Positions 43,374 to 43,773 of a DNA stretch of 64,000 nt are shown in pieces. Made by a program: the position numbers and the translations under genes. Source of the stretch: Shigella phage sb1; sequence record PQ666539; one strand, given 5' to 3'. The notes beneath the pieces were generated by a model, which searched no databases, was not told the origin of the DNA, and saw only the letters and a list, made by a program, of their open reading frames with translations. Within the stretch, counting starts at the first letter, position 1; each line of letters starts with the position of its first letter.

Positions 43374-43443
43374 TTTATTCTCCTCAGTAGTTGATAGGGT
43401 AATAGTATCACAACTAAAACCCTATGTAAACAACTTTGTGAAA
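43374..43443 (-). promoter_or_regulatory. T-even early-type promoter with inverted repeat flanking the -10 element
   Basis: Minus-strand GTTTACATAGGGTTTTAGTTGTGATACTATTACCCTATCAACTACTGAGGAG. Confidence 0.45.
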
Positions 43444-43701
43444 TTATTTTAAATCTTCTAATCGTTTCTTCATCTTAGAACCATTTTTAGCAATTTCTCC
43501 TGCATCGGAGCATAATGCTAAAAGCGCTTTAACTTTAGTTTGATCTCCTTTAAAAGACGAAGGATCGACTGCAGCAGCAAGTTCTTTAATACGAGAGAAA
43601 AGACGCTCAGCTTCAGCTAAAGCCATTCCAAGCTTTACTTCCATACCGTGAGAAGATTCAGTAATAGTAGTTTTTGCAGCAAACTCTTTGAAAGTTTTCA
43701 T
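43444..43701 (-). CDS. Internal-protein-like head protein at the ipI locus (leader MKTFKEFAAK...ITES)
   Basis: ORF track; IP-type N-terminal leader; sits immediately upstream of 57B as ipI does in T4. Confidence 0.5.
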   Translation of the reverse strand: MKTFKEFAAKTTITESSHGMEVKLGMALAEAERLFSRIKELAAAVDPSSFKGDQTKVKALLALCSDAGEIAKNGSKMKKRLEDLK

Positions 43702-43773
43702 TTTATTTTCCTAATTAATTTTGATGAGGTAATAGTATCACTACCTCATCAGCATGTAAACAACTTTGTGAAA
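43702..43773 (-). promoter_or_regulatory. T-even early-type promoter of the ipI-locus gene, with 9-bp inverted repeat flanking the -10 element
   Basis: Minus-strand GTTTACATGCTGATGAGGTAGTGATACTATTACCTCATCAAAATTAATTAGG. Confidence 0.45.

Follow-up and report, generated by a model that had tools for sequence, protein, structure and literature searches.

The segment at positions 43374-43773 of the window (the whole 64,000-nucleotide stretch of Shigella phage sb1 DNA analysed here, record PQ666539) is best explained as a cassette of the internal-protein (IP) locus, comprising the Ip5 gene, a ~90-bp promoter repeat and a hairpin around the -10 box that would serve as a sense-RNA element in read-through transcripts; we consider this combined reading probable on balance. 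All of the features noted in this segment are present, on the minus strand (Table 1), and the gene, the IP locus and the palindrome are already known, having been described decades ago. On this reading, it forms one unit of the modular internal-protein locus of a Tequatrovirus. Judged by sequence conservation with compensatory and G.U changes, the hairpin is real and appears to be selected, and the nested position of this hairpin is the point developed below.

Table 1. Positions of the Ip5 cassette, its neighbours and its promoter elements in the window
Feature	Position	Strand	Basis
Ip5 internal head protein gene, 85 aa, reads MKTFKEFAAKTTITESSHG...	43444..43701	-	ORF
Capsid-targeting leader, codons 1-15, MKTFKEFAAKTTITE, predicted prohead-protease site ITE/S (slash, cut)	43657..43701	-	10-protein alignment
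Shine-Dalgarno (SD) AGGAA of Ip5	43708..43712	-	Read from sequence
10-bp perfect inverted repeat TGATGAGGTA(gtgatactat)TACCTCATCA, encloses TGn and -10	43722..43751	-	Repeat search, RNA fold
Ip5 early promoter: -35 TTTACA 43760-43755, 17-bp spacer, TGa, -10 TACTAT 43737-43732	43732..43760	-	Consensus scan
trna.4, 61 aa, served by second promoter	43188..43373	-	ORF; PHROG 1692
Second inverted repeat ATAGGGT..(AGT..ACT)..ACCCTAT, encloses -10	43394..43425	-	Repeat search, RNA fold
trna.4 early promoter: -35 43430-43425, -10 43407-43402	43402..43430	-	Consensus scan
Upstream copy, ~90-bp cassette-boundary repeat	43696..43789	-	Direct-repeat families D1, D3
Downstream copy, ~90-bp cassette-boundary repeat, DLK-stop of Ip5 to ATGAAA of trna.4	43368..43459	-	Direct repeats, cassette alignment
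57B, Acb1 anti-CBASS nuclease gene	43774..44229	-	Pfam PF23474 Acb1, E=2.6e-60
Late-promoter motif TATAAATA inside gene 1	44815..44822	-	Motif match only

By sequence comparison, ORF 43444-43701 is the previously described Ip5 of T4-like phages. It matched PHROG 3499 ('internal head protein') over residues 1-85 of 85 (E=3.9e-49), and the UniRef entry 'Ip5 internal head protein' of T2 is 98% identical to the window protein. Homologues were found by tblastn in 496 phage records, ~250 phage records carry Ip5 at 95-100% identity, and megablast matched Tequatrovirus genomes at 95-97%. The gene lies between 57B and trna.4 (annotated in T4, T6 and PP01 as a predicted membrane protein), which is the slot of ipI in T4, and RB14, RB32, T6, PP01 and PST carry an Ip5/ipV annotation, which in RB14, PP01, RB32 and T6 is at the equivalent position. 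The original prediction, an internal-protein gene at the ipI locus beside 57B, is therefore borne out by both the PHROG match and the annotated relatives. The window does not differ in substance from the polymorphic IP loci of T-even phages with their Ip5 (ipV): gene, position and leader are the same.

The N terminus of Ip5 (MKTFKEF) follows the internal-protein leader pattern MKT(Y/F)xEF. When Ip5 was aligned with T4 IPI, IPII and IPIII, Ip6, Ip7, Ip9, RB69ORF127c and two other internal proteins of the window, M1, K2 and F7 were invariant across the 10 proteins and T3 nearly so. The prohead protease recognizes (I/L)xE, and T4 IPI is cut after ITE. In Ip5, a gp21 site is predicted at residues 13-15 (ITE/S, with ITE/A at the corresponding place in T4 IPI) and is kept at the motif level in five of five Ip5 clusters. 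The invariant residues and this match to IPI agree with the capsid-targeting leader that had been proposed. By analogy with T4 IPI-III, Ip5 would be made with a leader of ~15 residues (MKTFKEF...ITE) that sends it to the prohead core and is removed by the prohead protease; the mature helical protein of ~70 aa would enter the head together with the DNA, be injected along with it and probably neutralize a host defence.

The closest comparison for such a role is T4 IPI, whose mature form IPI* inhibits GmrSD. Among the internal proteins, only T4 Ip1, Ip2 and Ip3 have assigned GmrSD targets, each inhibiting its own variety of this type IV restriction enzyme (PMC12373910). IPI and Ip5 share the locus, the first seven residues (MKTFKEF) and the ITE cleavage motif, and the T4 ipI promoter (L077-5939) is nearly identical to the Ip5 promoter and carries the identical palindrome. 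However, the mature parts are unrelated, with homology ending at about codon 9, and Ip5 is predicted to form an all-helical hairpin. The AF2 model (pLDDT 72, alignment of 5 sequences) shows a generic helical hairpin, and Foldseek found nothing in the PDB at E<=0.001, so the structure offers no functional lead. Searches with Ip5 gave no match in Pfam or among PDB sequences, and a literature search did not find 'Ip5' alongside 'internal protein' and 'phage'.

The promoter regions of Ip5 and trna.4 are direct repeats of one another (43391-43459 versus 43721-43789; 69 nt, 84%), with a further direct repeat at 43368-43392 and 43696-43720. The upstream repeat contains the last codons of 57B (DLK-stop), an AT-rich UP region, the promoter, the 5'UTR and ATGAAA. 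In a six-cassette alignment, homology began at the promoter, ended near codon 9 and resumed only at the next promoter; likewise, homology with the cassettes of T4, RB14, T6 and RB32 begins and ends at the ~90-bp repeat. The gene content of the locus varies: ipI in T4, Ip5 in the window, Ip5 and ipI in RB14, Ip5 and Ip6 in T6, and Ip5, Ip9 and Ip7 in RB32, where the record is annotated as 'flanked by 43 bp direct repeat'. The Ip5-only configuration also occurs in pSs-1 and PP01. In the favoured explanation, homologous recombination between the ~90-bp repeats exchanges, inserts or deletes IP genes among T-even phages.

Elements of this kind have precedents. A 1994 paper by Repoila et al. (EMBO J 13:4181) is said to describe a flanking sequence of ~70 bp containing a T4 early promoter and an overlapping inverted-repeat palindrome. 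Arbiol 2010 (PMC2839356) credits Repoila 1994 with observing promoter and stem-loop elements at IP loci, and calls these elements analogs of PeSLs (promoter-early stem-loops). In the PeSL cassettes of T4-like phages, a stem-loop just upstream of the promoter works as a terminator (Arbiol 2010, PMC2839356; Comeau 2014, PMC4122927). Both kinds of element combine a strong early promoter with a stem-loop, recur between small, non-essential ORFs of hyperplastic regions and mark indel/replacement boundaries; in the window, too, the promoter repeat flanks variable ORFs and coincides with such boundaries. In contrast, the window stem-loop is nested around the -10 box, is AT-richer and has no T-run, and the terminator stem-loop just upstream of the promoter is absent from the Ip5 promoter.

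Both promoters fit the T4 early type (GTTTACA, 17 bp, TGn, TACTAT), with an upstream region of 80% A+T, and the trna.4 promoter is also present in T4 (L077-5572). T4 early promoters are used by unmodified sigma70 RNA polymerase, are immediate-early and start ~7 nt after the -10 box. From this spacing, transcription is predicted to start at A 43725 for Ip5 (7 nt after the -10) and at A 43395 for trna.4.

The two inverted repeats surround the -10 boxes of these promoters. At the Ip5 promoter, the arms (43751-43742 and 43731-43722) flank a 10-nt loop enclosing TGa-TACTAT; as an RNA, the hairpin folds at -17.4 kcal/mol (z=-6.3), and none of 200 dinucleotide shuffles was as good. The consensus match and this fold support the original prediction of an early promoter with its -10 inside a perfect inverted repeat, although the repeat is 10 bp long rather than 9. 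At the trna.4 promoter, the arms ATAGGGT (43425-43419) and ACCCTAT (43400-43394) form 7 bp, extended by an inner AGT/ACT stem (7+4 bp), and the RNA folds at -13.7 kcal/mol (z=-4.0; again 0/200 shuffles as good). The GGGTA/TACCC repeat reported earlier for this promoter was thus an approximation: a repeat is present, but in a different register. The promoter spacer is complementary to about -6 to +3, placing TGn and the -10 in the hairpin loop. Across the 12 early promoters of the window, a spacer pairs better with its own downstream sequence than with that of other promoters (permutation p~0.001).

When the window, T4 and RB69 were scanned, hairpins bridging the -10 (z<=-3.4) were found in 10 of 38 early-promoter candidates, a share of about a quarter to a third, and about two thirds of candidates have none. 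The hairpin-bearing promoters include T4 ipI (with the palindrome of the Ip5 promoter), trna.4 and dmd, with z-scores down to -7.5. Arm sequences vary among promoters, and the left arm slides, giving i+j registers of 43, 44, 49 and 50 and loops of 6-18 nt. Besides G.T pairs, compensatory changes keep the arms paired (CAGGCTC/GAGCCTG versus TAGGCTC/GAGCCTA; AGGGTTAT/ATAACCCT versus AGGGCTAT/ATAGCCCT; GATGAGGTA/TACCTCATC versus GATAGGGTA/TACCCTATC). In 16 same-register promoters, 94.9% of cells are paired and 7 of 11 pairs have changed on both sides, whereas 32-70% are paired in slid controls and 39% when the structure is shifted by one column; because the 16 rows were chosen for containing the repeat, the between-family 'compensation' is partly by construction.

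Alternatively, the palindrome may act in DNA, as a cruciform or as a hairpin in single-stranded or supercoiled DNA, providing a preferred site of breakage or strand exchange (e.g., a substrate of endonuclease VII); the promoter repeat would then be a hot spot of recombination and drive the shuffling of IP cassettes. Every cassette exchange seen is indeed bounded by repeats, and chimeric promoters with arms from different cassette types (RB14 L001-1896, RB32 L003-2417 and L057) imply that crossovers fell within the conserved gtgaTACTATta core that separates the arms. Yet a DNA structure would use both strands and favour neither mismatch type, while the internal stem transition mismatches, read on the sense strand, number 11 G.T and 0 A.C (8 versus 0 outside the -10/TGn), as counted with a stem finder that penalizes G.T like other mismatches; strand-biased C>T mutation may account for part of this excess, and not every event is independent by phylogeny. 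Furthermore, similar hairpins occur outside shuffling loci (T4 dmd and window position 27151), and plain homology of ~90 bp is already enough for T4 recombination. We therefore consider an action in DNA unlikely.

It is also rather improbable that the palindrome itself is functionless, whether as a by-product of slippage or template switching with repeated recombination among promoter copies, or as a hitch-hiker with the downstream box TAYCYYATCAA. Spacer variants do resemble circular permutations of short words (tagggt/tttag versus tttaga/tagggt), tactattacctcatcaa is locally duplicated in L066, recombinant promoters with weakened pairing persist (the RB14 ipI promoter, the RB32 Ip7 promoter and L057), and most early promoters have no hairpin. 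Such an origin fits poorly, however, with unrelated arms that maintain the same pairing in several independent promoters (GATGAGGTA, ACAGGCTCAT, AGTTGACAAGATTA and GGTAGGACTA), with double compensatory changes between close relatives (window position 39499 versus pSs-1), and with the extreme z-scores and the permutation result above.

Far less plausible is an operator, an option that the original prediction had raised; here it would serve a dimeric regulator covering the -10, for instance in the shut-off of T4 early promoters. A repeat overlapping the -10 is an effective place for a repressor, and the mechanism of early-promoter shut-off is incompletely understood according to a review (PMC3014915). 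However, the arms differ among promoters, which have only the loop (the promoter core) in common, and their half-sites lie anywhere from 6 to 18 nt apart across the different registers, a geometry that a dimeric DNA-binding protein could not read. In addition, the G.T positions break the DNA symmetry, the repeat is confined to a minority of early promoters, and no candidate regulator is known. The other option raised at that time, a 5' RNA structure, here taken as a stem-loop by which the promoter's own mRNA would be altered in stability or translation, is hardly tenable. An RNA containing both arms is predicted to form a stable hairpin, but the expected start, A 43725, falls within the 3' arm, and the spacer that holds the 5' arm precedes the -10 and is not transcribed from this promoter. 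The transcript predicted for the promoter itself has no marked structure (-3.6 kcal/mol, z=+0.7, no better than shuffles).

The favoured reading, a selected stem-loop in sense RNA, has the sense-strand G.T bias given above in its favour and places the hairpin elsewhere. Because its predicted start is inside the 3' arm, the Ip5 promoter's own transcript lacks the 5' arm, and the hairpin would form only in sense RNA from promoters further upstream. Since the 57B stop codon falls within the Ip5 promoter's UP region, 57B transcripts would read into the hairpin. A terminator scan of 43700-43800 gave no terminator-like match, and none between 57B and the Ip5 promoter; the 80 nt upstream of the promoter contain no strong hairpin. 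From this arrangement, we infer that the hairpin region is read through from upstream promoters. Late transcripts reading through 57A, 57B and Ip5 may come from the TATAAATA motif, but since late-promoter motifs are not above chance in the window, it is a lead rather than a finding.

A folded 146-nt read-through RNA retains the hairpin and leaves the Ip5 SD and AUG open; the Ip5 SD is unpaired there and in the promoter's own transcript alike, and the read-through centroid folds leave the SD and AUG of both Ip5 and trna.4 unpaired. Translational sequestration was thus rejected for Ip5 and trna.4. A role as an intrinsic terminator was also rejected: the sequences that follow the hairpins, AAAAUUAAUU and CAACUACUG, have no U-tract, and the terminator scan omits both. 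At two other window promoters (32342 and 22635), the spacer pairs with the SD. A search of Rfam 15 found no family at the gathering score, the only match being a chance snoRNA hit (22 bits versus a threshold of 55). A known parallel is found in T4 e, soc, 49 and I-TevI, where a promoter lies in DNA encoding the 5' strand of an RNA helix that forms in long upstream transcripts and cannot form in the promoter's own transcripts (PMC3014915). The Ip5 hairpin resembles these helices in being limited to long upstream transcripts, but they involve late promoters and sequester the SD or AUG, whereas the Ip5 promoter is early and its SD and AUG are unpaired.

The function of the hairpin would most likely be insulation or stabilization. 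Nested in the promoter and kept by selection as an RNA stem-loop, it would be a compact equivalent of the PeSL stem-loop, capping the upstream message while leaving the downstream ribosome-binding site as open as in the primary transcript. Three non-hairpin promoters of the window (27963, 24073 and 11819) instead have a classical GC hairpin with a T-run just upstream; nested hairpins may thus go with the lack of an upstream terminator, but the sample (0/4 versus 3/9) is too small for significance. More tentatively, and as a possibility we would not call probable, hairpins enclosing the -10 may extend beyond the IP loci as selected sense-RNA elements of some 25-33% of early promoters in Tevenvirinae. 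They would be missing from the promoter's own transcript and act solely in read-through RNA, as compact insulators or stabilizers that replace a separate PeSL terminator where the upstream ORF abuts the promoter. The proposed Tevenvirinae set consists of T4 ipI, trna.4, dmd, a T4 promoter near 58 kb, and RB69 and window promoters.

For T4 gene expression, the nested hairpin is a small remaining point that leaves current understanding unchanged. If the read-through role is true, the phage would pack an RNA element inside a promoter with the promoter's own message unaffected, and Ip5-like virion proteins would be expressed from upstream middle or late transcripts after early-promoter shut-off. 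The promoter repeat accounts for the exchange of IP genes between phages, and internal proteins are injected anti-defence effectors; by analogy with its T4 counterparts, Ip5, a widespread internal protein, may be a reasonable candidate for a screen of GmrSD-type targets.

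The internal protein (IP) gene family, its locus and the promoter repeat with its palindrome have all been described already; our small addition is evidence that the palindrome is kept as a sense-RNA hairpin and is common among T-even early promoters. The window segment is Tequatrovirus (T4-like), matching Ec_YwIITB1, pSs-1, RB14, T6 and others at 95-97% over 42400-44500, and every gene in the ip locus area is on the minus strand (see table). PHROG 3499 ("internal head protein") aligns with the whole of the 85-aa ORF (E=3.9e-49), and RB14, PP01, RB32 and T6 annotate Ip5 or ip5 at the same place; judged by its sequence the ORF is Ip5, which we take to be the Ip5 of Repoila et al. 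1994. With tblastn, Ip5 is present in 496 phage records (~250 at at least 95% identity), and 228 more of these records, at ~48% identity, form a second group with the gene adjoining the lysozyme gene; in a large protein database there are just five clusters at 90%, which go by the name Ip5 in T2 and RB70. The neighboring 57B encodes Acb1, yet it is "RNA ligase" or "hypothetical" in many phage records.

Features of the window around the Ip5 locus and at related promoters and IP genes
Feature	Position	Strand	Detail
gene 1	44459-45172	-	first in transcription order
57A	44247-44459	-	second
57B	43774-44229	-	third; anti-CBASS nuclease Acb1 (Pfam PF23474, E=2.6e-60)
Ip5 ORF, 85 aa	43444-43701	-	fourth
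trna.4	43188-43373	-	fifth
trna.3 and trna.2, then tRNA cluster	downstream of trna.4	-	
Ip5 promoter, -35	43760-43755	-	TTTACA
Ip5 promoter, -10	43737-43732	-	TACTAT
Ip5 promoter, inverted repeat	43751-43742 / 43731-43722	-	10 bp, 10-nt loop
trna.4 promoter	43430-43402	-	ATAGGGT/ACCCTAT plus inner 3-4 bp stem
Direct repeat, Ip5 promoter region	43696-43789		
Direct repeat, trna.4 promoter region	43368-43459		
Early promoter	39455-39500	-	TTTACA-17-TATTAT; 12-bp hairpin ACAGGCUCAUGA / UUAUGAGCCUGU around -10; -19.1 kcal/mol, z=-6.0; double compensatory C-G to T-A in pSs-1
Early promoter	27109-27151	-	15-bp hairpin around TATAGT; -19.0 kcal/mol, z=-6.0; T4 orthologue near 57,989, paralogue upstream of T4 dmd; several compensatory changes
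Further IP locus	40005-41215	-	between e.8-like genes and tRNA cluster; two leader-bearing genes
Late-promoter motif TATAAATA, same locus	41208-41215		
Terminator-like hairpins, same locus	41245-41222, 40684-40665		
IP gene (MKSYTQFLNEA...)	40694-41167	-	in-frame amber at 41066-41068

Among ten aligned IPs (Ip5; T4 IPI, IPII and IPIII; T6 Ip6; RB32 Ip7 and Ip9; RB69ORF127c; two further IPs of the window), the N-terminus alone is common, with M1, K2 and F7 invariant and T3 nearly so. The T4 prohead protease cleaves by an (I/L)xE rule; in the alignment Ip5 reads ...TTITE/SS and T4 IPI ...STITE/AT, and the ITE motif is invariant across all Ip5 clusters. The predicted capsid-targeting leader is thus borne out at the sequence level by N-terminal conservation and the ITE motif, and we infer that Ip5 is packaged and injected. 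Searches with mature Ip5 gave no Pfam family and no PDB relative; its AlphaFold model, built on a shallow alignment (pLDDT 72), is a hairpin of two helices and returned generic structural matches only, none at E<=0.001. Each of T4 Ip1, Ip2 and Ip3 is an inhibitor of a single GmrSD type IV enzyme (PMC12373910), so an anti-restriction role for Ip5 is plausible, by analogy only.

The minus-strand sequence ahead of Ip5, aaaataatttcacaaagtTGTTTACAtgcTGATGAGGTAgTGaTACTATTACCTCATCAaaattaattAGGAAaataaaATG, contains an AT-rich UP region, then the -35, and after a spacer of 17 bp the extended -10 TG and the -10. The inverted repeat around this -10 is real and perfect, as originally predicted, but spans 10 bp rather than 9. 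As RNA, the Ip5-promoter hairpin folds at -17.4 kcal/mol (z=-6.3) and that of the trna.4 promoter at -13.7 kcal/mol (z=-4.0), with 0 of 200 shuffles equally stable in either case. The Ip5 and trna.4 promoter regions repeat one another directly: each begins in the final codons of the ORF before it (both ORFs end in ...DLK and a stop) and extends into the opening codons of the gene that follows. In their 1994 abstract, Repoila et al. reportedly described a flanking sequence of ~70 bp holding a T4 early promoter with an overlapping inverted-repeat palindrome.

Nesting of a hairpin around the -10 box extends beyond this locus. Early promoters (TTTACN-17-TAnn[AG]T, G at -14) were scanned in the window, 60 kb of T4 and 50 kb of RB69, with spacer and downstream bases shuffled and promoter elements held fixed as the control. 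Hairpins bridging the -10 with z<=-3.4 occur at 10 of 38 candidates: in the window at 43760, 43430, 39499 and 27151; in T4 at ipI, trna.4, near 57,989 and upstream of dmd, the last two with 15-bp stems and z of about -7; and at two promoters of RB69. The remaining candidates show no -10-bridging fold, and many carry a conserved TACTATacaactatcaact. At the T4 ipI promoter (L077-5939, from the T4 ipI region) the arms are identical to those of the Ip5-promoter palindrome.

Between promoters the arms are unrelated, and in the window complementarity of each spacer to its own downstream bases exceeds cross-pairings (p~0.001). Changes within families are compensatory: CAGGCTC/GAGCCTG in the window versus TAGGCTC/GAGCCTA in pSs-1, AGGGTTAT/ATAACCCT versus AGGGCTAT/ATAGCCCT, GATGAGGTA/TACCTCATC versus GATAGGGTA/TACCCTATC, and T4 AGTTGACAAGATTA/TAATCTTGTCAACT versus AGCTGACAAGACTA/TAGTCTTGTCGGTT. 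Across 16 same-register promoters, 94.9% of cells are paired and both sides have changed in 7 of 11 pairs, against 32-70% paired when partners are slid by 1-3 columns and 39% for a one-column offset structure, although these rows were picked for having the repeat, so that the between-family signal is there by construction; the independent evidence for the hairpin is the enrichment scan together with the within-family changes.

The mismatches that the stems tolerate bear on whether the palindrome acts as DNA or RNA. Although the stem finder penalised G.T the same as any mismatch, transition-type mismatches inside stems comprise 11 G.T (sense strand) and 0 A.C, or 8 and 0 once positions constrained by the -10 and extended -10 are removed. 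This asymmetry is not expected of DNA or antisense-RNA structure and points to sense RNA, with the caveats that mutation may be strand-biased and that the events are not all independent. The expected starts, A at 43725 (Ip5) and A at 43395 (trna.4), fall inside the 3' arm, so a promoter's own RNA cannot contain the hairpin; given these predicted starts, its formation requires transcripts that begin farther upstream. Between 57B and the Ip5 promoter no terminator-like site was found, and when a read-through RNA of 146 nt is folded, the centroid structure retains the hairpin, with the Shine-Dalgarno (SD) and AUG open.

At IP loci, homology of the Ip5 unit to T4 ipI, RB14 ipI, T6 Ip6, and RB32 Ip7 and Ip9 extends from the upstream promoter as far as about codon 9 and starts again exactly at the next promoter, with unrelated interiors. 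T4 carries ipI at this locus; the window, pSs-1 and PP01 carry Ip5; RB14, Ip5 and a chimeric ipI with an Ip5-type leader; T6, vB_Eco_Some and UGKSEcP2, Ip5 and Ip6; and RB32, Ip5, Ip9 and Ip7, its record remarking "flanked by 43 bp direct repeat". This variable content is the modular shuffling already described for IP loci. The RB14 chimera (L001 1550-1896) fuses an Ip5-type promoter-proximal region and leader atgaaaactttcaaa to an IPI body; the promoter of this gene is itself mixed, with a spacer from one cassette type and a downstream arm from a different one, which leaves two G.T pairs in the stem. In IMGVR_UViG_2706796299_000001 (~2050-2080), an IP-locus promoter has its -10 and right-arm segment tandemly duplicated (tactattacctcatcaa gatactattacctcatcaa), which looks like a product of slippage or unequal exchange. 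Unlike the window's further IP locus, T4 ipII and ipIII lie elsewhere, beside gene e. The amber codon in that locus is TAG where pSs-1, whose 157-aa protein is intact, has TAT (Tyr34); this makes the gene a pseudogene or, alternatively, an amber allele of an IP gene that is not essential.

Tentatively, we favor an RNA-level function for the nested hairpin. A role of the palindrome in DNA recombination is unlikely, and we also doubt that it has no function. An operator, one of two readings in the original prediction, is very improbable: the 3' arm stays at about -6 to +3, within the conserved box TAYCYYATCAA, and the 5' arm shifts within the spacer (i+j registers 43, 44, 49 and 50; loops of 6-18 nt), and such variable half-sites and spacing argue against binding of a dimeric protein. 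The other, 5' structure in the promoter's own transcript, is effectively excluded by the position of the expected start and by the unstructured transcripts themselves (z=+0.7 and +0.5).

The favored RNA-level reading draws on the promoter-early stem-loop (PeSL) cassettes of T4-like phages. In its passages on the IP-locus elements of Repoila et al., Arbiol et al. (2010) treats T4 early promoters as their base and the stem-loops as weaker, more AT-rich and variable in size, analogs of PeSLs and not homologs. A PeSL in the strict sense has its stem-loop upstream of the promoter, as a transcription terminator, unlike the Ip5 promoter; the nested hairpins have no U-tract and are therefore not classical terminators. 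The window's four hairpin promoters directly abut the preceding ORF with no upstream terminator, whereas three of nine others (27963, 24073 and 11819) have a classical GC hairpin and T-run just upstream, as in PeSLs, numbers too small for a statistical claim. At these three minus-strand promoters, the GC-rich hairpin and T-run lie within 20-90 nt upstream (e.g. AGGGAGCCTTCGGGCTCCCT TTTTT), the canonical terminator-then-promoter layout. From this difference we read the nested hairpin as a possible compact counterpart of the PeSL stem-loop.

Such an element could close off the upstream message, either by blocking 3' exonucleases once the RNA has been cleaved or by capping the 5' end once it has been processed, and would leave the downstream ribosome-binding site as open as in the primary transcript; in folds, nested hairpins leave the SD uncovered. 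The T4 late promoters of e, soc, 49 and I-TevI follow the same logic, the promoter being embedded in the sequence that encodes an RNA helix's 5' strand, but differ in promoter class and in hiding the SD. Similar to that design, though early, are the minus-strand window promoters 32342 and 22635, whose spacers are complementary to the downstream SD (TCCTCTTGACTG / CAGTTAAGAGGA and GTTCCTC / GAGGAAC), so that read-through transcripts, not the promoter's own, could hide it. A TATAAATA motif occurs within gene 1 (44815-44822), but the window shows no enrichment of this motif. The nested hairpin could be of importance where a virion protein required late is expressed from middle or late transcripts originating upstream.
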